A stretch of 64,000 nucleotides of DNA from an uncultured Planctomycetota bacterium. Lineage in GTDB: Bacteria > Planctomycetota > Planctomycetia > Gemmatales > Gemmataceae. This document shows positions 1 to 45,876 of this stretch, piece by piece; within the stretch, counting starts at the first letter, position 1; the number at the start of each line of letters is the position of its first letter. The DNA is taken from the NCBI GenBank assembly GCA_963849325.1, contig CAWKHF010000012.1, positions 1,280,001-1,344,000 on the forward strand. Direction: 5' to 3'. The position numbers and the translations under genes are program-made. Below the pieces are notes generated by a model that was not told the DNA's origin, made no database searches, and saw only the letters and a list, made by a program, of their open reading frames with translations.

Positions 1-1191
1 GGCTCGCGCGGCGGCGGATCGTGCCCGTCACCAATCGCCTTCCGCCCCGAATGCCCGCGACTTGGCTCGACAGGCGTGCGCCGCCGAACGGCGCCTGGCC
101 GTGGCCCGCGGCCGAGGAAGCGCTCGGCCCGCGCCGAACGAACCCTGCTCCAGGCCGACGCCGGCAAGAGGACGGAAGCCGAGAAGAAACGCGACGCGGC
201 CCAGCGACGCCGTCGCCGCGGCCCGCAAGGCGCTCGACGCGCCCGGCGAGACGTACACGCCGCTGCGCGGCGCGCTGAAGACGCCCGAGTCGAACCTGGA
301 GACCGAGGCGTCGCGCAGCCGGCCGTTCCCGACGACGAGCACCGGCCGGCGTTCGGCGCTGGCCCGCTGGATGACCGACCGACGGCACCCGCTGACGGCC
401 CGCGTCGCGGTCAATCACGTCTGGGCGCGGCACTTCGGCCGCCGCTGGTCGCCGACCGTCTTCGACTTCGGCCGCAAGGGCGCCGCCGCCGACGCACCCC
501 GAGTTGCTCGACTGGCTGGCCGTCGAGCTGATGGAGAACGGCTGGAGCATGAAGCACCTGCACCGCCTGATGGTCACATCCGAGCGCCTACCGGCTGACC
601 TCCTCCGCCGCGGGGCCGACGCCGCGAATCGAACGGTCGACCCGGAGAACCGCTATTACTGGCGGATGAACCCGGTCCGCATGGAGGCGCAGGTCGTGCG
701 CGACAGCCTGCTGCACCTGGCCGGCGAGCTGGACGCGACGATGGGCGGCCCGTCCCGATCCCGTGCGCAGACGAGGCGTCGCGGCGGCGCAGCCTCTACT
801 TCGTCCACTCGCACAACGACCACCACGCTTCCTGTCGATGTTCGACGACGCCAGCGTGCTGGAGTGCTACCGCCGGGCGCGAGAGCATCGTCCCGCAGCA
901 GGCGCTGGCCCTGTCGAACAGCCGGCTCGCCCTGGACATGGCCGCCCGCATCGACGCCCGTCTGCACGACCGTCTCGGCCCGGTGCTCCGACACCGCGTT
1001 CGTGCGGGCAGCCTTCGAGACGGTCCTGCCGCCGGCCCGACCGCCGCCGAACAGGCGGAGTGCGAGCAAACCCTGGCGCGGCTGACCGCCTTGCTGGACA
1101 AGCAGGAACGCGCCGGACGCGGTCCGCCGCGCCCGCGGCGATCTCGATCCAGGCGCTGCTCAACCACAACGATTTCATCACCATCCGCTGA
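1..1191 (+). CDS. DUF1553 (PSD1)-type planctomycete protein, 3' part, frameshifted
   Basis: Motifs spread across frames: [81 protein letters not shown]. Followed by DUF1501 as is typical. Confidence 0.85.
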
Positions 1192-1202
1192 ACGAGGCCA
1201 AC

Positions 1203-2678
1203 ATGAGTCCGCGCTGTCCCTGCCATCAACCCGGCCACGGCATCCACCGCCGGACCTTCCTCGCCGACCTGGGCATGGGCTTCACCGGCCTGGCCCTGGG
1301 CGCCATGCTGCACCGCGACGGCCACGCCTCCGACCGGTCCCGCCTGGGCGCCGCCCGACGGCAAGCCCGCACTTCCCGCCGAAGGCCAAGAGCGTCATCT
1401 GGCTGTTCATGAACGGCGGCGTCAGCCACCTGGAGACGTTCGACCCCAAGCCGATGCTCAACCAAGTACGCCGGCAAGACCATCGCCGAGACGCCCTTCA
1501 AGGACACGCAGGATCCCGAGAAGCTGAAGCTGGCCCGCGTCGTCGTCGTCAACGACGCCAACGGCCAGCAGCGCAACAAGCTCTATCCGCTCCAGGTCGG
1601 CTTCCGCAAGCACGGCCAGAGCGGCATCGAGATCAGCGACTGGTGGCCGCACCTCGGCGGCTGCGTCGACGACATCGCCGTCGTCCGCTCGATGTACACC
1701 ACCGACGACAACCACGGCGCCCAGACGCAGTTCCACTCCGGCCGGCACATGCTCGACGGCGAGTTCCCCACGCTCGGCGCCTGGGTCCATTACGGCCTCG
1801 GCTCGCTCAACGACAACCTGCCGCAGTTCGTCTCGATGGGCCGCCGCGAATACTGGAACGCCCGCGACGGCCACTACCTCGGCCCGGCCCACGACGCCGT
1901 CCCGCTGCGCATCGACCCGGCCAACCCGCTCGACTACGGCCAGCCCGAGGGCGACGTCGGCGCCGAGGAGCAGCGGGTCGGCTTCGACCTCGTCGGCCGG
2001 CTCAACCGCCTACGCGCCGTCGAGTACCCCGACGACCCGGCGCTGGCCGCCCGGATCCAGGCCTACGAGCTGGCCTTCCGCATGCAGACGTCGCTGCCCG
2101 AGGTGCTCGAACTTCAACGGCGAGACGGAGGAGACGAAGGCGACTCTACGGCCTGGACGACCCGGAGACCCGCGACTTCGGCATGCAGATGCTGGCGTCG
2201 CGGCGGCTGGTCGAGCGCGGCGTGCGCTTCATCCAGATCCAGCACGGCGCCGGCGGCGCCGGCGTCTGGGACGCCCACGGCGGCCTGCGGGCCAACCACG
2301 CGCGCAACTGTCCGCCAGGTCGACCAGCCGATCGCCGGCCTGCTGAAGGACCTCAAGCGGCGCGGCCTGCTCGACGAGACGATCGTCGTCTTCGCCACCG
2401 AGTTCGGCCGCACGCCCGGCACGCAGGGCTCCGACGGCCGCGACCACCACATCTACGGCTTCTCGGTCTGGCTGGCCGGCGGCGGCATCAAGGGCGGCGT
2501 CGTCCACGGCGCGACCGACGAGATCGGCTTCCACGCCGTCGAGGACCGCCACTACGTCACCGACATCCACGCCACGATCCTGCACCTGCTCGGCCTCGAC
2601 TCGCGGCGGCTGGAGATCCCCGGCCGCAAGCGGCTGGAGATCGACCACGGCCGACCCATCGAGGCCATCATGGCATGA
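1203..2678 (+). CDS. DUF1501 domain protein with Tat-like RRTFL leader, frameshifted
   Basis: [75 protein letters not shown]. Confidence 0.9.
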
Positions 2679-2685
2679 ACCTGGA

Positions 2686-2724
2686 CCGCTTGCGGCTTGG
2701 TGGCAAACGCTAAGCCGCAAGCGG
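2686..2724. repeat. REP-like palindrome, family C
   Basis: ccgcttgcggctt ... aagccgcaagcgg. Related copies at 31125 and 47737. Confidence 0.75.
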
Positions 2725-2979
2725 CTTGAATATCACCCCACCAAACTCTTGGATGAAGCTTTGATTCAAAAAACGGGAAAATGGCAAGATGGTGAAGGTA
2801 GGTGGCTACCTATGTTCGCTAGATTGCTATTCCTCCGTTTATTGAATCAAAGCTCCCTCTCCACGCCGGCAAAGGGTCCGCGTGGCACCGTCCATCCGGG
2901 AAACGACAGAGGACAGCCAACCTTGCGGTCGTCCGTCCTCCATCTGCCTCGGGATGTTCGTTCGTGTTCCCCGAAGGGG

Positions 2980-3366
2980 TCACGGCAATTGCCTGGCGTC
3001 CTCTTTCTTGTCGCTTGGTGCGTCGTCCTTGCTATCGGGCTTGGGAAAGGGCAGAGGTTCCTTGGCGGGCGGCAGCATGGCCGGGTTCGCCGCATTGATC
3101 GCCAGGATGCGTTCCTTGACGATCTGGGCGGACTCGGCGGGCGGCGTCCAGTACTGAACGACCTGGTAATCGGTGTGCGGCGGTCCAAAATACTGCGGCC
3201 ACCAGTACGGATAAGGAGCGTACCAGGTGACGGAGGGCACGAACGCGCCCTCCCTTCCACGCATCGCGGTTCGGACGTCGCAACCGTCCGCTCGGCTCGG
3301 GCTTCCGGTCGAGAACAGGGTCAAAAAGAAACCGGCGGTGAGAAGTAAGGTGATCATACGCGGCAT
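2980..3366 (-). CDS. Hypothetical exported protein, Pro/Trp/Tyr-rich
   Basis: GGAGGAG-like RBS, then MPRMITLLLTAGFFLTLF signal-like N-terminus. Confidence 0.6.
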   Translation of the reverse strand: MPRMITLLLTAGFFLTLFSTGSPSRADGCDVRTAMRGREGAFVPSVTWYAPYPYWWPQYFGPPHTDYQVVQYWTPPAESAQIVKERILAINAANPAMLPPAKEPLPFPKPDSKDDAPSDKKEDARQLP

Positions 3367-3607
3367 GGGCTCCTCCCAAGAGACTCGGCCAGCGCGGGAA
3401 CGTCCGGCCGTGTGATTTTCCATCCGATACAGCCAATCCTATCATTCGGCGCGGCGGGAGGCGGGTGCGTTCTCGGCTGCGCGGCGCTTTTCACCACCAC
3501 CTGCGCCGGATAGTCCCTATGGGCGATACATTTCCTGTCTCCGGAAGGATCGTCTGTCCGTTTATAAGGAATAGGTGTTGCATGTTTTTTTCCAGAAAGG
3601 TTCAGCG

Positions 3608-4282
3608 ATGATGCGACTTGGGAAACTCGGTTTGGTGTTGGCGGTCGTGGCGATGGCGTCCGGCCCGGCGTTGGCGCAGCAGCGTCAGCCGGGCGGCCGC
3701 GGTTTTGGAGGCTTCGGCGGTTCTCCGCTCTTCCTCCTGGCCCAGAAATCGGTCCAGGATGAGCTGAAGCTCTCCGAAGACCAGGTCAAGAAGGTCAAGG
3801 ATCTCAGCGACAAGCAGCGCGGATCGTTCCAGGGTCTGCGCGACCTCAGCCCTGAAGAGCGCCAGAAAAAGATGCAAGAAGCGAGGAAGGCCAATGACAA
3901 GGCGGTTGCCGATATCCTGAAGGCGGAACAACTCAAGCGTCTCAAGCAAATCTCCCTGCAACAGCGCGGAGCACGCGCGTTCAGCGATCCCGAGACGGCC
4001 AAGGCCCTCCATCTCACCGACGGGCAGACGGAGAAAGTGAAAACCATTCTCGAAGCGTCACGGCCCGCGGGCGGTCAGCGCGGTCAGCGCGGTCAGCGGA
4101 CGGAGGAAGAGCGCCAGAAGCTGGACGCGGCACGCAAGGCGACCAACGAGAAGTTGATGAACGTCCTCACGTCCGAGCAGAAGGCGAAGTGGAAGGAATT
4201 GACCGGCGAGCCGTTCAAGGGCGAGATTCGCCGGCCGGAGTTTGGGGGTCGCAATCGGCAGACTCCCCGTCCGGCTCGGTAA
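3608..4282 (+). CDS. Exported helical protein, Spy/CpxP (LTxxQ)-like
   Basis: Signal peptide ending ALA-QQ; repeats LKLSEDQ, LHLTDGQ, VLTSEQKAKWKELTGEPF. Confidence 0.7.
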   Translation: MMRLGKLGLVLAVVAMASGPALAQQRQPGGRGFGGFGGSPLFLLAQKSVQDELKLSEDQVKKVKDLSDKQRGSFQGLRDLSPEERQKKMQEARKANDKAVADILKAEQLKRLKQISLQQRGARAFSDPETAKALHLTDGQTEKVKTILEASRPAGGQRGQRGQRTEEERQKLDAARKATNEKLMNVLTSEQKAKWKELTGEPFKGEIRRPEFGGRNRQTPRPAR

Positions 4283-33814: not shown

Positions 33815-35246
33815 CTACTCGCGGAAGCGGCCGGGTTCGCGGACGCCCTTGCCCTGGCGTTTGGTCGCGGTATCGCCGAGGTCGTCGCGGGCCGTTTCGG
33901 CCAATTGCTTCAAGCGTTCGACGACTTCCGGATGGCGGTCGGCGACGTTGGTCGTCTCGCCGACGTCGTTGTCCAGGTCGAACAAGGCCAGGGGAGTAAT
34001 CGCCTGGGTGTAGGGAACGGGTTTGCCGTCCTTGCCTCCCGGTTTGCCGCCCAGCGTTCGATAGGTGTGGGAGAAGTGCAGCTTCCATTTGCCGGCGCGG
34101 ACGGCCTGCAGTCCTCGGTCCCAGTAGAAGTACAGCGCCTCATGGGGACATTTCGCCCCCGGCTGTCCCGAGATCAGCGGCCAAATGTCCAGACCGTCGA
34201 TCTTGTGCTTGGGCAACTCGGCGCCGGCCAGTCGCGCCAGCGTCGGCAGGATGTCGATGGTCATGGCCGGCTCTCGGCACACGCGGCCCGCCGGGATTTG
34301 GCCCGGCCAGCGCATCAGGCACGGCTCGCGCTGGCCGCCGTCCCAGGTCGTGCCCTTGCCCTCGCGCAGCGGTCCCGCCGAGCCGGCGTGGTCGCCGTAG
34401 GACAGCCACGGCCCATTGTCCGAGCAGAAGATTACCAGCGTCCGCTCGTCCAGGCCGTGTTTCTGGAGGGCGTCCAGGATCTGTCCGACCGACCAGTCGA
34501 TTTCCATGATGACGTCGCCATACAGACCCCGCTCCGACTTGCCCTTGAACTTGTCCGAGACGTGCAGCGGCACGTGCGGCATGTTGTGGGCCACGTACAG
34601 GAAGAACGGACGATCCTTGTTCTGGTCGATGAAGCGGACGGCGTGCTCGGTGTACCAGGTGGTCAGCTGCGTCTGATCGGGGTTGGTCCGGATGGTCTTT
34701 TCGCCTTCGATCAGGGGCAAGGGCGGGAACTTGGACGTCGGATGTTTGGGCCACATGTCGTTGGAGTAGGGCAGGCCGAAGTAATCGTCGAAGCCGTGCC
34801 GCGTCGGCAGGAAGGGCGGCTGATGGCCGAGGTGCCATTTGCCGTAAATCGCCGTGGCGTAGCCGCGGCGTCTTGAGGACGTCGGCAATGGTCTTCTCGC
34901 GGTCGCTGATGCCGTGCTTGCTCTGCGGCCCCAGGGCGCCGAGGATGCCCAGGCGGTTGGGATAGCAGCCGGTCAGCAGCGCCGTCCGCGACGCCGAGCA
35001 GACGGCCTGGGCGACGTAGAAGTCGGTGAAGCGCATGCCTTCGCGGGCCATGCGGTCGAGGTTCGGCGTCCGGAAGCCCTTGGCGCCGTAACAGCCGACG
35101 TCGCCGTAGCCCTGATCGTCGGTGAAGACGATGACGACGTTGGGCGGCCGGGCCGCTTTCTCCGCGCCGTGGAGCGGTGATTGGTCTCCCATCCCGACCA
35201 GCGCCGCCAGCCCAACGAACAGGGCCGCATACCCTTGTCGATTCAT
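33815..35246 (-). CDS. Arylsulfatase A-like sulfatase, frameshift near 34870
   Basis: [43 protein letters not shown]. Confidence 0.93.
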
Positions 35247-38249: not shown

Positions 38250-41228
38250 TCAGGCGCGGTGATTCTCGGCAGGAGGCGAGGGCAGGACGCCGCCGTCCAG
38301 TTGTTCTTCCAGCACTTCCAGCGGGTGCAGCGCCCGCCGGCCGGCCAGGTCGTTGATCTGATGACGGCAGGACGTACCCGGCGCGACCACGACCGCTTCC
38401 GGCGTCTTCTCCAGCGCCGGCAGCAGGGCGAGGTTGGCGATGCTGGACGCTCAGGTCGTAATGCTCCTTCTCGAAGCCGAACGAGCCGGCCATGCCGCAG
38501 CAGCCGGTGTCGAGCACCGTCACGTCCAGTCCGCGGCACCAGCCGCAAGCGCCGCGGCCGTGCCGCCGGCGCCGACCAGCGCCTTCTGATGGCAGTGGCC
38601 GTGCAGCACGCACGTCTCCGGCCGCGGCCGCAGCGGCAGCTCGGCAGCGTCCGTCCTGGACCTGCTCGGCCAGCCAGCCGTCGGCCAGGTGGGCAGCGGC
38701 GGCGATGCGTCCGCGTCTGCGGCCCCGGCACCAGCTCCGTCCACTCGTCGGCCAGCGTCAGCAGGCAACTCGGCTCCAGGCCGAGGAGCGGCGTGCCGTC
38801 GGCCGACGCGCCGCGCCAGGGCCGGCGGCCTGCGCCTGAATCAACGCTCGCGGCTCGGTGCAGGAAGCCCTTGCTAATCATCGGCCGGCCGCAGCAGGCG
38901 AGGTCGGCCAGCTCGACGGCGTAGCCGGCCGCTTCGAGCACGCGCACCGCGGCCCGGCCGATGGCCGGCTCGTTGTAGGTCGTGAAGCAGTCGTCCAGCA
39001 GCAGCACCCGGCCGCGCGTGCCGGCCGCGGCGTCCGGCCTGTGCCGGGCGAACCAGCGGCGGAAGTGGTCGGCGTGCAGCGGCGGCAGACTGCGGCGCCG
39101 GTCGATGCCCGCCAGCTTCTCCAGCAGCCAGCGCAGCGAGCCGCCGCTTCTGCAGCCAGTTGACCAGCGGCGCGAACGGGGCGCCGAGGCGGTTGAGCCG
39201 GTGGATGCCGGCCATGAGCAGATGGCCGAGCGGCCGCGGCCGGCCCTGATAGTAGAGTTGCAGAAACTCCGCCTTGAGCTTGGCCACATCGACGTTGCTG
39301 GGACACTCCGCCTTGCACGCCTTGCACATCAGGCACAGGTCGAAGACGTCGTGGACCCATCGACTTGTCAGTTCGCGCAGCGGCTGCTCGCCCGGACAGC
39401 GCCAGGCGCAGGGCGTTGGCCCGGCCGCGCGTGCTGTCCTTCTCGTCGCGCGTGGCGCGGAACGACGGGCACATCGTCCCGCCCTGCGTCTTGCGGCAGG
39501 CGCCGTTGCCGTTGCACATCTCGACGGAGCGGACGAAGCCCTCCTGCTTGCCGTAGTCGAAGACCGTCGGCGGCTCGGCCGGCGCGATAGCCGGGGCCGT
39601 AGCGCAGGTTCTCGGTCATCGGCGGGGCGTCGACGATCTTGCCGGGGTTGAGCAGGCTGCTTGGGGTCGAACGCCTGCCTTGACTGCGGCAGAACGCCTG
39701 GTAGACCGCCGGGCCGAACATCTTCTCGTTCCACTCGCTGCGGGCCAGGCCGTCGCCGTGCTCGCCGCTGAGCGAGCCGCCATACTCCAGTACGAGGTCG
39801 GTCACGTCCTCGGTGATGCGGCGCATGCGGGCCACGTCGCCGGGGTCCTTGAGGTTCAAGCACCGGCCGGATGTGCAGGCAGCCGACGCTGGCGTGGCCG
39901 TAGAAGGCGCCGTCGGTGCCGTGACGGTGCAGCAGGTCGCGGAAGCGCGGCGACGAACTCCGGCAGCCGCTCCGGCGCGACGGCCGTGTCCTCGACGAAC
40001 GTGACCGGCTTGCGGTCGCCGGGCATGCCGTACAGCAGCGGCATCGCCGGCCTTGCGCAGGTCCCACAGCGGATCGCGCACGGCCGGGTCGAGCGCCGGC
40101 ACCGCCGCCGTCAGGCCGGCGACGCCCGCCAAGCCGGCGACGCAAGCTGCTCGACGCGGTCGGCCACCTCGCCGGCGTCGTCGCCGCTGAACTCGACCAT
40201 GAACACCGCTTGCGGCCGGCCGCTGGATGGCCTTCATCGTGTCGCGCAGCGCCAGGTTGCCGGCGGTCAGTTCGAGCAGCAGATGGTCCATCAATTCGAC
40301 CGCGGACGGCTGCAATTCCAGGCAGGCGGCCAGCGCGTCCATCGCCGCGCCGAGCGATGGCGAACTGCGGCACGAGCAGGCCGCGCGCCTTGCGGCCGCG
40401 GCACCAGCCCCAACTTCCGCCTCGGTGACGACGGCCAGCGTGCCCTCGCTGCCGACGAGCAGCTGGTGCAGCCCGACCGGCTGCCGGCCCTCGTTCAAGC
40501 CCGCCGACAAGGACGTCGAGGTTGTAGCCGCTGACGCGGCGCAGGATGCGCGGGAAGCGGCGCACGATCTCGTCGCGCTCGTCGCCGGACGATGGCGCGC
40601 ACTTGCCGGTAGATGCCGCCTTCCAGCGTGCGGCGCTCGGCCGCGGCGCTCCCACTCGGCGGCGTCGACGGGGCCGAACTCGACGCCCGGCTGCCGTCGG
40701 CGAGGACGACGTCGAGGCGGCGGACGTGGTCGATGGTCTTGCCGTAGACGATGGAGCGCGAGCCGGCCGAGTTGTTGCCGATCATGCCGCCGAGGTTGGC
40801 CCGGCTGGCGGTGGCCACGTCCGGCCCGAACTGCAGGTCGTGCGCGGCCAGGGCGCGGTTGAGCGCGTCGAGGACGACGCCGGGCTGGACGCGGGCCGAC
40901 GCGCGCCGCCGGATCGATGTCGAGGATGGCGTTGAGATACTTGCTGCAATCGAGGACGAGGCCGGGGCCGATCGACTGGCCGGACAGGCTGGTGCCGCCG
41001 CCGCGCGGCCGTGATCGGCACGTGCATCTCGGCCGGCGATCTGCACGGCGGCGACGATGTCCTCGGCGACTTTTCGGGATGACGACGCCGAGCGGCTCGA
41101 TCTGGTAGATGCTGGCGTCGGTGCTGTAGAGGCGGCGCGAGGTGGCGTCGAAGCGGACCTCGCCGGCCAGGTGCTTGCGCAGGTGGCGGGCGAGACTATC
41201 GCGCTGGAGGTCGGTGAAGTCGGGTCAT
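38250..41228 (-). CDS. FAD-linked oxidase with 4Fe-4S and CCG domains (YdiJ/GlcDF-like), many frameshifts
   Basis: YSTDASIYQIEP, ANLGGMIGNNSAG, GSEGTL, SGEHGDG, CNGNGAC, CLMCKACKAECP, CCGMAGSFGFEKEH. Confidence 0.9.
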
Positions 41229-41250
41229 GGTGATGCCGGCACGTACTCCG

Positions 41251-41466
41251 TCAGGGCGTTTGCAGTAGCTCTTGCCAGGTAGAAACGCGCAGCAAGCGTA
41301 CGCTCATGCGTTCCAGGCGTTCCAGATCGGTGATGCTCTCCACAGCGAGGCGGACATTCACGTCGGCCTCGCCGAATCGTTCGCGTCCCAGGAGGAGCAA
41401 CATCTTGTGCAGCGCCTTGGCCTCGCCTTGCTCGAGGATGTACAGATAGGTGTCCGATTCCGTCAT
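41251..41466 (-). CDS. Stand-alone paralog of the Rpn C-terminal tail (putative antitoxin), 71 aa
   Basis: GGAG RBS then ATG; 57/71 aa identical to the tail of the upstream gene, with many synonymous changes. Confidence 0.8.
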   Translation of the reverse strand: MTESDTYLYILEQGEAKALHKMLLLLGRERFGEADVNVRLAVESITDLERLERMSVRLLRVSTWQELLQTP

Positions 41467-41479
41467 GGCACGTACTCCG

Positions 41480-42329
41480 TCAGGGCGTTTGCAGCAGTTC
41501 TTGCCAGGTAGAAACCTCCTGCACTCGCTCAATCATACGTTCCAGGCGGCTCCAGATCGGTGATGCCCTCCACGGCGATACGGACATTCGCGTCGGCTTC
41601 GCCGAATCGTTTACGCCCCAGGAGGAGCAAAATCTTGTGTGCCTCCTTGGCTCCCCCTTGTTCGAGTATGTACAGATACGTATCCGATTCCATCATGGCA
41701 GCTACTCCGTGAAACAGGGGAATCAGGCGATCACGTGGCTGACGCAGGCCCGACAACACGAAAAACGCGGTCGCCAGCCTGGCCACTTCCGACGGCGGCG
41801 CTTCGGCCTGGATGCGCTGCAACAGACGATCAATCGCGCCGGGCAACGTCTCTTCCAACGTCGCCCCTTCGGGCAGCCGTCCCAGCGGAGCCAACGGCAG
41901 CGTTCCCAGGCCGCTTTGCAGCCAGACGGCGATGGGCACTTCCCAGACGCGGACAATCTCGAATCGAAACGTCAACTCGCCGCGTCCCGGACGGCCTGCG
42001 TAGTGAACCGTTCCCGTCAGGTCCGAGCGATCCGCTCGCGGATGAAGCAGGACCGCGATGCTGTGTACCGGCAAGCCGTACTGATGGTACAACAGGGTAT
42101 TATACATCAGCAAGCGCTGCGGCAGATGCGCGTCCGCGCCGCTCTGGAAATCGATGTGCAAGAGGCGAGCGCCGATCTGCAAGACGATGTCGGCGAACGC
42201 CGAGACCGTGGATAAGTCCGGCGTGAGCAGATGGATCGGTTCGGTCGGCGGCTCATCGAGGATGGTGAGCCAATCGGCCGGATGGTTCCGCACCAGATCC
42301 TTCAGGGTCGCATCAAAGCGCAGGGCCAT
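41480..42329 (-). CDS. Rpn-family / putative transposase-like PD-(D/E)XK nuclease; +1 error near 41549
   Basis: FDATLKDL, ADIVL..LLHIDFQS, RLLMYN, FEIVRVWE, LPLAPL, MESDTYLYILEQG tail; GGAGG RBS. Confidence 0.8.
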
Positions 42330-42427
42330 GCACGGTCCTCCAGGCGAGACGCCGCGGCGTCCGCCAACGACAGGATAGGATCGTCCGCGGTAATCGTCGA
42401 AGGGTTGGTCAGACGGAGGTGCGAGCG

Positions 42428-43299
42428 ATGACACTTGAGGAATCTTTCATCCAGGCCATCCGCGAAACCCCGGCCGACGACACGCCGCGCCTCATTTACG
42501 CCGACTGGCTGGAGGAGCATGGCCAGGCGGATCGCGCCGAGTTCATCCGTCTCCAGTGTCGGCTCGCTCGCACTTCGGACACAGGCTCGGAACGGTCTGT
42601 CCGGATGGGGCGCGCCGAGGAGCTGTTGCGCCGGCACTGGCAGGAGTGGGTTGGGCCTCTCCGCGCCATCGTCGGGCCGTGGCGCGATCGCTACGGCGAA
42701 AGCTGGATGGGCGAGGACTACCACCCGGATGCATTACGCTATCACTTCGGGCGCGGCTTCGTGTCTGCCCTTGCGCTGGACGCCGAAGACTTTCTGCGCC
42801 ATGCCCGCGACCTGAATCGTTTGACGCCCCTTTTCATGCTGACCTTATGGCGAGCGGGACGCTGTGCCCGCAGCCTGGCGAACACCCCGCAGCTGCACGG
42901 ATTATCCGGGCTGGCCTTCGCGGATTATTACGACGCCCCTCTGACGGCGGGCGACGCGGTGGCGCTGGCGTCTTCGCCCTACCTGGACGGCCTGTCCGTG
43001 TTGTATCTTGGGGGGAACTCGCTGGGTGATGAGGGGGTTGAGCGCCTGATGAAGGCACCGTGGCTTACGGGTCTGACGCACCTCGACCTGTCGGACAACG
43101 GTCTGTCCGATCGCGGGGCGCGGCGCTGGCCGAATCGCCCGGTTTGGTCAACGTGCAAACACTCCGGCTGCGGAGAAATTACTTCTCTCTCGCCGGGGTG
43201 GCCGTCCTGGCCGGCTCCCCAAGCCTTCGCCGCATCTCTCGCCTGGAGTACGATCCTCCCGGCGAGAACATCCCGACGCCAGGGAGGGCACACGCATGA
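42428..43299 (+). CDS. TIGR02996 repeat-companion domain + LRR protein, frameshift near 43125
   Basis: FIQAIRETPADDTPRLIYADWLEEHG...RAEFIRLQC; RGFV; L.L..N.L.D.G repeats. Confidence 0.88.
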
Positions 43300-44954
43300 A
43301 TCACGAACAAGCCTTTTTTCAAGCGATCCGCGACGAACCGGACGACGACACGCACCGGCTGATCTACGCCGACTGGTTGGAGGAGCAGGGGGGGGCCGCC
43401 CGCGCTGCGCGAGCCGCTTTCATTCGCGCCCAGTGCCGGCTCGCCGTCCTGCCGGCCGGCGACCCGGCTCGCGACCCCCTCGAAGACGAAGCGGCCGACC
43501 TGCTGGCCGAATATGAGGACGAATGGACGCAGCCGTTGCGCGGCATCGCCGAACAATGGCAGTTCGCTCGCGGCTTCGTCGAGAGCATCTCCCTCCGCGG
43601 CGAAAACTTCTTGACGCACGCCGAACGTCTCTTCGACTTCGCCCCCGTGCGGGCCGTCCACTTGCTGATCCATTTCCGCGACGTCCCCCATCTGGCCGCC
43701 TGTCCGAGTCTGCACTGGGTCGAGCAGTTGGATTTCCGCCGCTGTCATCTGCACGATCGCGCGCTGCAACAACTGCTGACCTCGCCCCATCTCGACAGGC
43801 TGACCGCGCTCCATCTTGCCGGCAACGGCATCACCACGGCGGGAGTGCAAGCACTGGTTCGCTCGCCCCTGCTGGGTCGCTTGCGCCATCTCGACCTCAG
43901 CCGCAACGCCGGTGTCGGCGACCGGGCCGTGCATCTACTGGCCGGGGCGCCGGCGGCGTCATCCTTGGAAGAATTGGGCCTGGCATCGACCAATGCTACC
44001 GCGACCGGACTGGAGGAACTGTTTCGCTCGCTCCATCTGCCTCGTCTGGTAAAGCTCGACATCTCCGGTAAACGCTTCGCCCTCGCGCAGCTGGCCTCGT
44101 GGATGAAAAAGCTGGCCGAGTCGAGGTTGCTGAGCCAACTCCGCAGCCTCGACCTGAGTGAGGCGATCGACCCCCTGGCGTTGCCCCTCCTGATCCTCTC
44201 TCCCGCCGTGGCGAACTTGCGCGAGCTGCACCTGCGCGGCATCGGCCTGGAGGGAGACGACGTGGCGCCGCTGGCGGAATCACCCTATCTGGAGGGCTTG
44301 AACGTCCTCGACCTGCGGAAGAACAATCTGAGGAGCGAGGGAGCGCGAGCGCTGGCCGGCTCGCCTCATCTGGTCGGTCTGATCTCCCTGGACATCAGCT
44401 CCAACAATATCCGTGACACGGGTGCCACGGCGATCGCGGAGTCTTCTTGCTTGAAAAGGCTGTCCGTGCTGGACCTCGCCCGCAACGGCATCGGCGGACC
44501 CGGACTGCAATCCCTGGCCGCCTCGGTGAATCTCGGCCATTTGCGGACGCTCAACCTCGCTGGCAACTTCATCGGCGGCGACAGCGTGCGTACCCTGGCC
44601 GAATCCTCTCACCTAGGCCGGCTGGTGTCCCTTGACCTCAGCGATGCCTATCTCGAAGAGGACAGCGGCCGCGCCCTGGCGTCGTCCGCGAACCTGCCGC
44701 GCCTCGCCACGCTTCGGTTACAGAAGAACCTCCTCGGCGACGGCGGCGCGAAGGCTCTGGCTCACTCGCCGCACCTGAAGCGCTTGACCATCCTGAACCT
44801 CAACGACAATCGCATCGGCAAGGCCGGCGCCGAGGCGCTGTCTACCGCGCCGTTGTGGCGGCACCTGCGGGAACTCGACCTGCGCGGCAACGTCTTCACC
44901 GATACGCAGGAAGCGCTGCTGCGCAGCCGGTTCGGCGCGGCCGTGCTGCTGTGA
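43296..44954 (+). CDS. TIGR02996 domain + long LRR protein
   Basis: FFQAIRDEPDDDTHRLIYADWLEEQG; more than 10 LRRs of the SPHL..L..LDL..N.I...GA.ALA type. Confidence 0.92.
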   Translation: MNHEQAFFQAIRDEPDDDTHRLIYADWLEEQGGAARAARAAFIRAQCRLAVLPAGDPARDPLEDEAADLLAEYEDEWTQPLRGIAEQWQFARGFVESISLRGENFLTHAERLFDFAPVRAVHLLIHFRDVPHLAACPSLHWVEQLDFRRCHLHDRALQQLLTSPHLDRLTALHLAGNGITTAGVQALVRSPLLGRLRHLDLSRNAGVGDRAVHLLAGAPAASSLEELGLASTNATATGLEELFRSLHLPRLVKLDISGKRFALAQLASWMKKLAESRLLSQLRSLDLSEAIDPLALPLLILSPAVANLRELHLRGIGLEGDDVAPLAESPYLEGLNVLDLRKNNLRSEGARALAGSPHLVGLISLDISSNNIRDTGATAIAESSCLKRLSVLDLARNGIGGPGLQSLAASVNLGHLRTLNLAGNFIGGDSVRTLAESSHLGRLVSLDLSDAYLEEDSGRALASSANLPRLATLRLQKNLLGDGGAKALAHSPHLKRLTILNLNDNRIGKAGAEALSTAPLWRHLRELDLRGNVFTDTQEALLRSRFGAAVLL

Positions 44955-45039
44955 GCGCTCATCCAGGCTGGTCAGGAGCGCACGGCGGAACCTTACAATG
45001 GGTGACGTGTTGCTTGCCCCGGATCAGGGATGCGGACGG

Positions 45040-45876
45040 ATGACTCGATCCCACGCCGATGCGTTTCTGGAAGCGATCCTGCAAAATCCCGACGACGATA
45101 CGCCGCGCCTGGTTTACACCGACTGGCTGGAAGAGCAGGGCGATGCTGACAGCGTCGCTCGCGCGGAGTTCATCCGCATTCAGTGCGCCCTAGCCAGCGG
45201 ACACTTCCCGCCGCGACGGCGAACGGAAATGAATAGACGCCAGCAGCAGATCCTTCATGAGCGGGGCAAGGAGTGGGCACACCCCCTCCGCCGGCTGGTG
45301 AAAGGCTGGGAATTCCATCGCGGTTTCATCGATGAAGTCGCCATAAGGGGCGATACGTTTTTCGCTCATGCGGATCGACTCTTTCGCCGCGCCCCCATCC
45401 AGCACCTGCGTTTCTGGCCTCGTCTGCGGCCCTATTCTTCCGGCTCGGTAATCAACATTCCCTTCAGCGAGCCAATCAACACGGCGGTGTTGGCGGACAA
45501 TGAACATCTCCGCCGCCTGCGTTCCCTCGACCTCAGCTGGCACAACCTGGAAAGCCGACACCTACGCGCTTTGATCGTATCGACGCACCTGACCGGCCTC
45601 ACCTCGCTGACCCTGGCGTATAACCGCATCGGCGACAGCGGCATCCGGGCGCTGGCCGAAGCTCCGCTGCTGGCGCAGTTGAGGCAACTGAACCTCTATC
45701 GCAATGACATCAGCACTGGCGGCGTGCGTGCGCTCGCTCAATCTCTGGAAAGACTGGCTCGCACTTCCGAAGGGTTACGCCTGCGAATACTCGATGTGCG
45801 CGGCAACCCTATCAGCGCTGCCGGTCGTCACCTTCTGGGCGATTCGCCGCTGTTGCAGCGTGTGGCCTGCTGGTAG
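45040..45876 (+). CDS. TIGR02996 domain + LRR protein
   Basis: FLEAILQNPDDDTPRLVYTDWLEEQG...RAEFIRIQC; FHRGFI; LRRs. Confidence 0.9.
   Translation: MTRSHADAFLEAILQNPDDDTPRLVYTDWLEEQGDADSVARAEFIRIQCALASGHFPPRRRTEMNRRQQQILHERGKEWAHPLRRLVKGWEFHRGFIDEVAIRGDTFFAHADRLFRRAPIQHLRFWPRLRPYSSGSVINIPFSEPINTAVLADNEHLRRLRSLDLSWHNLESRHLRALIVSTHLTGLTSLTLAYNRIGDSGIRALAEAPLLAQLRQLNLYRNDISTGGVRALAQSLERLARTSEGLRLRILDVRGNPISAAGRHLLGDSPLLQRVACW

Follow-up and report, generated by a model that had tools for sequence, protein, structure and literature searches.

A stretch of 64,000 nucleotides from the genome of an uncultured Planctomycetota bacterium (Gemmataceae; assembly GCA_963849325.1, contig CAWKHF010000012.1, positions 1,280,001 to 1,344,000), hereafter called the window, carries a locus that we read, with a probability of roughly two in three (about 0.68), as a chromosomal Rpn-type module of Gemmataceae. 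It would consist of a long gene with a nuclease-like N-terminal domain and a C-terminal tail (tail 1), a translation start for this tail inside the long gene, and a second, free and maintained copy of the tail (tail 2) behind it, the frameshift present in tail 1 being an assembly error. The locus is a new example of a design already published for rpnE-ypaA of Escherichia coli, and not a new system. According to the E. coli study (Zhong et al. 2023, PMC10400941), the long Rpn proteins act as toxic nucleases and are blocked by their own tails (RpnS), which are translated separately and can also be encoded by a gene apart, annotated as DUF4351. Second tail copies of independent origin are described there downstream of rpnE (ypaA) and rpnC; they can be removed by deletion or by fusion to the N-terminal domain, and both small proteins, RpnE-S and the downstream copy RpnE-Ss, are made. 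A commentary by Koonin (PMC10400984) sees in the second copy a decoupling of toxin and antitoxin. All features of the window locus lie on the minus strand, and coordinates are window positions (Table 1).

A preliminary description of this DNA had reported a 14-bp motif in three copies with a period of 229-230 bp, one of them, bearing GGAG, inside the nuclease gene and directly before an ATG at 41696. The sequence bears this out: GGCASSTACTCCGT is found at 41238, 41467 and 41697 (three matches against 0.03 expected, a number reached in none of 100 shuffles), and Tandem Repeats Finder reports a repeat from 41238 to 41710 with a period of 230 bp, 2.1 copies and 84% matches. Every motif copy reads ACGGAGTA..TGCC on the minus strand. 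Copy 1 lies immediately 5' of the ATG at 41696 and copy 2 immediately 5' of a further ATG at 41466, from which a stand-alone paralog of the tail (41466-41251) had been described; its frame is indeed open over 71 codons. Copy 3 represents 13-14 nt of the repeat beyond two whole units. RNA folding around the three copies yielded stabilities not above those of shuffled sequences and hence no sign of a structured element, and a scan of 40900-42700 for promoters and terminators found none.

The internal start at ATG 41696 is supported by comparison with 58 related loci containing a whole N-terminal domain and a tail, the counts from which are not independent of each other. The first codon of the tail is ATG in 41 and GTG in eight of these (49/58), and a Shine-Dalgarno (SD)-like word lies 4-18 nt upstream of the tail start in 45. 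More telling is the glycine codon that supplies the GGAG: 38 of 43 cases have GGA here and the remaining five GGG, compared to a GGA share of only 16% (123 of 762) among the glycine codons for the N-terminal domains of these genes. GGC and GGT, 61% of the background glycine codons, never occur at this position, and a constraint on the protein therefore hardly explains the bias towards GGA. The 16S rRNA of the window's genome ends in the usual anti-SD sequence, and GGAG upstream of long open reading frames (ORFs) in this genome peaks at -13 to -10, the GGAG of the window being located at the modal distance (-12). An internal ribosome-binding site (RBS) with a start codon for a separate tail, as known from Rpn genes, is thus present as far as the nucleotide sequence goes, and the intragenic start proposed in the preliminary description gains support from the relatives.

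Searching for homologs of the long protein returned 409 proteins at E<=0.001, and all of those that carry an organism name belong to Gemmataceae. Their source names are 'RpnC/YadD family protein', 'DUF4351 domain-containing protein' and 'predicted transposase YdaD'; the connection to COG5464 runs through these names only. When 46 homologs were scanned against Pfam, DUF4351 (PF14261) was recognised on the tail of 29, including the nearest homolog (residues 223-278), and the N-terminal domain was covered by no family. Tail 2 alone stays below the Pfam threshold for PF14261, yet aligns throughout with the DUF4351 tails of the homologs, and the long protein possesses the small, variable C-terminal tail of DUF4351 type that characterises Rpn proteins. 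A remote link to this superfamily is provided by another gene of the window's genome: its homologs, 37 Gemmataceae proteins with Transposase_31 (PF04754), aligned by hhalign with the profile of the window family at 96.7% (E 3.3e-10), and in turn with E. coli RpnE at 86% (E 5e-6). The two Gemmataceae families (the PF04754 family being represented in the window's own genome, for example, by C12:63141-63473) are collinear over 266 columns, including both the catalytic-type motif, where HlDFQS pairs with LIEHQS, and the tail, which pairs with the tail. They differ in that motif, D-x-Q in the window family against E-x-Q in the PF04754 family, and in length (about 282 versus about 340 aa). The JGI name 'predicted transposase YdaD' has been given to parts of both, and two of the 120 PF04754 proteins listed (P0334 and P0355) also contain PF14261. 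Three more Rpn-like PD-(D/E)XK genes with sub-threshold PF04754 matches are clustered elsewhere in the window's genome (C6:618400-624700; L019-L021, L141-L143), one of which matches the window's family profile at 95%. PF11103 (DUF2887) had no match in this genome, and searches of PDB sequences with the family profile and with the tail profile gave no meaningful match.

The predicted structure points in the same direction. An AlphaFold2 model built from 47 sequences reached a predicted local distance difference test score (pLDDT) of 90.4 and a predicted template modelling score (pTM) of 0.79. Foldseek returned no match to this model at E<=0.001, its weak rows being led by NucS/EndoMS, Hjc, Cap4 and restriction enzymes. 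In VIA-align against 48,161 chains, NucS was on top (Z 7.1, root-mean-square deviation 3.0, 100 aligned), followed by Can2 (6.7 and 6.0), VC1899, EcoT38I (5.8), SdaI (5.5), McrBC (5.5), BspD6I (5.3) and Cdn1 (5.2); eight of the 12 best rows bear nuclease titles (Z 5.2-7.1), all aligned on model residues 1-149. Within the family, D47 and Q62 are invariant and D60 is nearly so (HxDFQ). Predicted fold and conserved residues together are those of an N-terminal PD-(D/E)XK nuclease domain.

Several observations nevertheless weigh against reading the locus as an Rpn-type module and should be named together. The window's own proteins found nothing relevant in Pfam, NCBIfam or PADLOC. With PF04754 the long protein has no match even at E<=10, none of the 46 homologs has one at E<=0.01, and a scan of the whole genome with this model hit other genes, not the long gene of the window; by the threshold of the Pfam model, the protein is not a member. 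The direct hhalign comparison of the window family profile with E. coli RpnE detected no similarity (0.35%), and every VIA-align Z is below 8, which is 'middling' by the scale of the tool. RpnE itself is annotated as inactive nuclease-like and ypaA as a pseudogene, the window family keeping D47, D60 and Q62. The loci compared for the internal start are related to each other, and tail 1 is broken in the assembly as given. Taking profile comparisons and predicted fold together, we conclude that the window family would be a divergent branch of the Rpn superfamily beyond the reach of the Pfam model. The designation 'Rpn-like' in the preliminary description accordingly holds as a remote relationship, carried by the two-step profile link and the structural alignment, and to read the locus as a toxin of Rpn type, with a tail start inside the gene and a spare tail behind it, seems reasonable on the basis of these remote homologies and comparative signals.

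A family of Rpn ancestry could also have taken on another role, in recombination, DNA repair or as a selfish element, with tails acting as oligomerisation or regulatory modules and not as antitoxins. The remote similarity to tested Rpn proteins is compatible with such a role, as are the inheritance of the locus in conserved synteny and not in an obvious mobile island, the housekeeping-type neighbours and the missing PADLOC match. We consider it unlikely: the hallmarks shared with Rpn genes are several (the DUF4351 tail, internal RBS and start, four-residue indels in the first tail helix, free second tails), and a genome of the same genus (G107) has, at the exact spot of the rpn gene, a gene for an 852-aa helicase-HNH protein with PADLOC matches to PbeA and type IV restriction enzymes, as would be expected of a slot for defence genes. 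About 40 nt adjoining the oxidase gene in G107 still resemble the tail end, stop and motif. The helicase-HNH gene of this locus (L139, G107:C278:37000-45000) occupies 1063-3621, corresponding to 41238-42395 of the window, between the genes for a flavin adenine dinucleotide (FAD)-linked oxidase and a leucine-rich-repeat protein.

The layout of the window locus is that of rpnE-ypaA of E. coli K-12. Both loci show an internal RBS and ATG at the tail start, followed by a free second tail gene, with a spacer after the stop of 12 nt in E. coli and 13 nt in the window. In E. coli, the RBS-bearing 14-nt word AAAAGGAGAGATTA precedes both the internal ATG of rpnE and the ATG of ypaA, its second copy overlapping the rpnE stop, and the DNA identity of the tail pair is 85% compared to 84% in the window. 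The tails are 56-61 aa long in E. coli and 71 aa in the window, and E. coli lacks a third motif copy after ypaA, unlike the window. Tandem Repeats Finder leaves the rpnE-ypaA repeat unreported, though it is plain on reading. In RpnA-S (structure 7TH0), Zhong et al. place hypervariable four-residue insertions in the first helix, starting 8-20 residues after the tail Met (PMC10400941). Relatives of the window family have insertions of four or eight residues after tail residue 17, inside the modelled helix 216-242, in a predicted position like the published one; ypaA also carries a four-residue insertion, and the two tails of the window have none. By analogy with RpnA and RpnA-S, the putative nuclease of the window family may likewise be held in check by its tail, produced as a small protein of its own.

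Under the Rpn-type reading, the product of the long gene would combine a PD-(D/E)XK-like nuclease domain with a DUF4351 tail, small and helical, and the conserved GGAG and ATG at the domain boundary would allow ribosomes to make the tail alone as well. The second, free tail gene, which lies right after the stop, would have arisen by an old tandem duplication of the tail segment including its RBS; presumably it is part of the same transcript and uses its own copy of GGAG for translation. If the E. coli Rpn proteins are a guide, tails made on their own may bind the tail of the long protein and thereby keep the nuclease inactive until some trigger. The duplication would have preceded the split from a syntenic relative, with both copies kept since by purifying selection, and in the window lineage the copies would have been partly homogenised by gene conversion, while the frameshift in tail 1 would most likely stem from the assembly.

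This frameshift had been overlooked in the preliminary description, whose 71-aa tail 1 and gene TGA overlapping motif copy 2 are obtained only when one base is ignored. The first repeat unit is longer by one base than the second (GAGCCGCCTGG versus GAACGCCTGG, at about 41546-41549). As assembled, the nuclease ORF runs from 42329 to 41529 and encodes 266 aa, with its stop TGA at 41531-41529, in agreement with the source's own gene call (266 aa). Ignoring the extra base, the long gene has 282 codons and a stop TGA at 41482-41480, whose last base is the first base of motif copy 2; 282 aa is also the length of all but one of the seven full-length homologs nearest to it (P0002-P0008), the exception being P0008 with 286 aa.

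The extra base near 41549 is probably an assembly error, as judged from the sequences compared, because of five observations. The next gene downstream, encoding the FAD-linked oxidase, has at least six frame changes relative to an intact 984-aa ortholog in G107; two of six other paralogs in the window's genome are split; this genome consists of 14 contigs with a completeness of only 84.7%; the codons of tail 1 beyond the break still are constrained (ratio of nonsynonymous to synonymous substitution rates, dN/dS, 0.26); and tail 1 is intact in the syntenic relative L145. In addition, L081, from a long-contig metagenome-assembled genome (MAG), contains a single-base indel at the equivalent GATC..CGCCTGGAA site of the tail, but with the sign reversed, which looks like a systematic base-calling problem. 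The two indel sites, one an insertion and the other a deletion (L081 3290-3310 and window 41546-41560), both adjoin GATC and CGCCTGGAA, and may reflect a systematic sequencing error at a methylation-type motif. A programmed frameshift was also considered and is rejected in view of the opposite sign of the L081 indel.

If the frameshift were real, the long protein as well as the internal product would be cut after tail residue 49, tail 2 would be the sole complete tail, and the system would be split or decaying. The assembly does stop at 41529, as does the 266-aa gene call, and loss and fusion events among such tails are on record in Zhong et al. (PMC10400941). Set against the constraint on the post-break stretch, the indel-rich assembly, the intact tail in L145 and the opposite indel in L081, we regard this explanation as rather improbable. 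Single-base indels are abundant in the window assembly, in the oxidase gene (38300-41228, minus strand) and in a sulfatase gene split over two frames (33818-35246, minus strand), and ORF-based readings anywhere in the window therefore need care.

Read through the extra base, the tails differ in the amino acid encoded at 14 of 70 comparable codons, not 14 of 71 as initially counted; the cluster of differences (IERVQE versus SVRLLR) and the many synonymous changes (19.5) noted at that time stand. The comparison of dN and dS proposed in the preliminary description gives a dS of 0.54 and a dN of 0.11 (dN/dS 0.21), the signature of purifying selection. Differences fall into the variable columns of the family (mean entropy 2.68 bits versus 1.59 elsewhere), and the conserved core residues are kept in both tails. 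The nearest relative, L145 on a metagenome contig, has an N-terminal domain identical at 76% and the same gene order (leucine-rich-repeat gene, rpn, tail, tail, FAD oxidase). Its repeat has a period of 229 and a spacer of 13 nt; both starts are preceded by the motif with its GGAG, and a third, diverged copy is in the same place as in the window, after the second stop. This shared two-tail arrangement indicates that the duplication is older than the split of the two lineages, and tail 2 of the window compared with tail 2 of L145 shows a dN/dS of 0.29. The two tails of the window are 81% identical (dS 0.55), and are therewith closer to each other than the orthologous N-terminal domains of the window and L145 (dS 0.78); together with the identity of motif copies 2 and 3, this suggests a later gene conversion within the locus, by which the tail copies of the window lineage may have been partly homogenised. 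A free downstream paralog of the gene's own tail, preceded by the copied internal RBS, is what defines a locus of the rpnE-ypaA type, and both are found here.

Tail 2 might, on the other hand, be a functionless by-product of the tandem duplication that has not decayed yet. Extra tails do decay: in five of the 93 loci sampled, a partial remnant is all that is left of a second tail. For three of 25 extra tails, no start codon lies close by. Tail 2, in contrast, has an open frame, the copied GGAG at 8 nt, the above-mentioned dN/dS of 0.21 at a dS of 0.54 and intact core residues, and free tails are kept with the same junction in L145 as well as across genera in L022/L023 (dN/dS 0.22), making a functionless copy very unlikely. 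That the duplication itself could be an artefact of this error-prone assembly, for example two strain variants of one tail set in tandem, is hardly credible in view of the independent contig of L145 with the same two tails, spacer and neighbours, the recurrence of the architecture in other assemblies (several with contig names in the style of short-read assemblers, k141_ and NODE_) and the differences between the units, which are mainly substitutions in a coding pattern. Tail 2 thus holds as a maintained paralog and not as an assembly duplicate, as the preliminary description had maintained.

Tail number varies between one and three among the relatives, as had been predicted. Eighty loci were picked from genome contigs by N-terminal peptides, blind to tails; 20 were dropped (19 without a whole N-terminal domain in one frame, one without downstream DNA), and of the 60 evaluable loci, 49 have one tail, seven have two, none has three and four have one tail plus a remnant. 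Another 80 loci, picked from metagenomes via alignment of close homologs, yielded 36 distinct evaluable ones, with one tail in 27, two in eight, three in none and one plus remnant in one; a metagenome scan with the exact peptides of the window had found no relative, the alignment-based scan did. Pooling both samples, in which three one-tail loci are common, two tails are present in 15 of 93 loci. Five tail-rich genomes, a biased sample chosen for many tail matches and not scored for remnants, contributed 67 places with one (52), two (13) or three tails (2), one raw 'triple' being in fact a double with a split second tail. Among the extra tails, SD-like sites were recognised in 11 of 22, a lower bound given that the first start codon met was taken. 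A library search with tail 2 produced 1304 proteins at E<=0.001; the best 150 of these include 57 free proteins that do not exceed 90 aa and match the tail once, small stand-alone DUF4351 (PF14261) proteins like tail 2, 35 proteins with two tail matches in one ORF and two with three. In P0127, P0129, P0130 and P0148, two or three tandem tail domains follow each other in one ORF with no intervening stop, forming a fused tail array. Arrays of three consecutive tails exist in L122 (G013:C110:23800-27600) and L123 (G100:C11:415000-419000); those of L122 are three intact tails of 71 codons with pairwise identities of 54-59%, every one of them starting at an ATG of its own behind a purine-rich sequence. 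At L044 and L089, the whole gene is present in tandem duplicates.

The preliminary description had also proposed that tails are added or swapped by recombination at the 14-bp motif. This part of the proposal does not stand, the motif being no general cassette boundary. In the flanks of the first tail at 70 related loci (60 of them with one detected tail match), the longest common word is 3-6 nt, and the junctions vary among two-tail loci, in which the period is 225-445 nt, the spacer 9-154 nt and the start of the homology 4-120 nt before the ATG (L026, L032 and L072, with only a trivial spacer alignment, are excluded from the junction alignments). Repeat material beyond two whole units is found only in the window (13 nt) and in the 225-nt group L022/L023/L025 (5-7 nt). 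The 14-mer as a conserved tail flank or recombination site is therefore rejected; lacking a conserved flank and with junctions specific to each locus, it represents the edge of the particular duplication of the window, carried along with the RBS.

Swapping of tails as such finds better support in the relatives. Two loci of one MAG, L032 (G013:C96) and L131 (G013:C137), have N-terminal domains identical at 91% and unrelated flanks, and contain the same two tail types in reciprocal order: crosswise, the tails are 86% and 76% identical, position for position only 60% and 54%, as if fused and free tails had changed places. If a model of matched tails is true, the free tail of L032 would fit the nuclease of L131 and vice versa. 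In most two-tail loci, moreover, the fused and the free tail of a locus resemble each other much more in the first 15 codons than in the rest; in L022 the DNA identity of the two tails is 100% in this part and 62% beyond. Between the orthologs L022 and L023, concerted-type and paralog-type sites stand at 6:0 in codons 1-15 and at 1:29 further on (Fisher p = 3.6e-6), and such lineage-specific states common to both copies suggest a gene conversion confined to the 5' end of the tail in loci of this kind. The window does not show the 5' pattern (about 82% identity in the first 15 codons versus about 84% over the whole repeat), and each of its two tail types is found in the fused position among its closest homologs. 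Reciprocal tail order, concerted evolution of the 5' end, both types fused in relatives, three-tail arrays and multi-tail ORFs would allow, without proving it, a reading of the tails of this planctomycete branch as exchangeable specificity cassettes: one to three free variants would be stored, the RBS and the concertedly evolving first 15 codons would enable a stored tail to take the place of the fused one, and free tails might cross-regulate paralogous nucleases. We put this forward as a possible, rather doubtful extension.

Polymorphic toxin loci (CDI, contact-dependent inhibition, and Rhs) keep orphan cassettes of toxin tips and immunity genes, in which a variable module follows a conserved junction and extra copies lie downstream. 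Loci of the window type have no homology to these cassettes, and by this analogy the stored module here would be a putative inhibitor and dimerisation tail, not a toxin tip; the exchange between fused and free tails in the relatives of the window is read from patterns in the sequences only.

Table 1. Features of the Rpn-like locus (positions in the window)
Feature	Position	Strand	Basis or remarks
GGAGG, likely Shine-Dalgarno sequence of the long protein	42337..42341	-	7 nt 5' of ATG 42329; genome with anti-SD, GGAG enriched before ORF starts
Rpn-like long gene (RpnL-type)	41480..42329	-	ORF list, translations; 409 homologs; model pLDDT 90.4
N-terminal domain, 211 aa, PD-(D/E)XK-like alpha/beta core	41697..42329	-	conserved columns; VIA-align; hhalign
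Motif copy 1 (ACGGAGTAGCTGCC), intragenic, proposed internal translation start	41697..41710	-	GGAG 41705-41708, 8 nt 5' of ATG 41696
Tail 1, intragenic, DUF4351-type (RpnS-type if translated from ATG 41696)	41480..41696	-	broken by one extra base
Single extra base shifting the tail 1 frame (GAGCCGCC vs GAACGCC)	41546..41549	-	unit alignment, translations, intact L145
Motif copy 2 (ACGGAGTACGTGCC), duplication junction	41467..41480	-	GGAG 41475-41478, 8 nt 5' of ATG 41466
Tail 2, free gene, 71 codons + stop (RpnSs-type paralog of tail 1)	41251..41466	-	open frame; dN/dS 0.21; L145 ortholog
Motif copy 3 (ACGGAGTACGTGCC)	41238..41251	-	first base = last base of tail 2 stop; no tail behind

On the other side of the rpn gene, three adjacent leucine-rich-repeat genes on the plus strand (42419-45876) share an N-terminal domain with RLIYADWLEE, the first of them being divergent from rpn with less than 100 nt between the starts.

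Regarding novelty, the preliminary description went too far: Zhong et al. (2023; PMC10400941) already describe a second free tail downstream of an rpn gene, with independent origins and with cases of loss or fusion. No later report of multi-tail arrays turned up in the literature searched, and the supplementary lists of Zhong et al. may include planctomycete or multi-tail loci. What is new is the probable membership of a planctomycete branch invisible to Pfam, evidence for a two-tail state that is old and under selection, and hints of a cassette-like exchange in the relatives. As to annotation, the break in tail 1 probably stems from the assembly, and short DUF4351 ORFs that follow genes of this kind merit gene calls. 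The design of an antitoxin inside the toxin gene with a spare copy behind it would be extended from E. coli to a remote branch of the Planctomycetota. In this branch, two tails are an old state common to the window and a syntenic relative, with purifying selection on both. This argues for a separate function of the free tail, a point left open by the E. coli work. The 15 two-tail loci among 93, the three-tail arrays, the reciprocal tail order and the concerted first 15 codons offer material for studying how tail specificity evolves.

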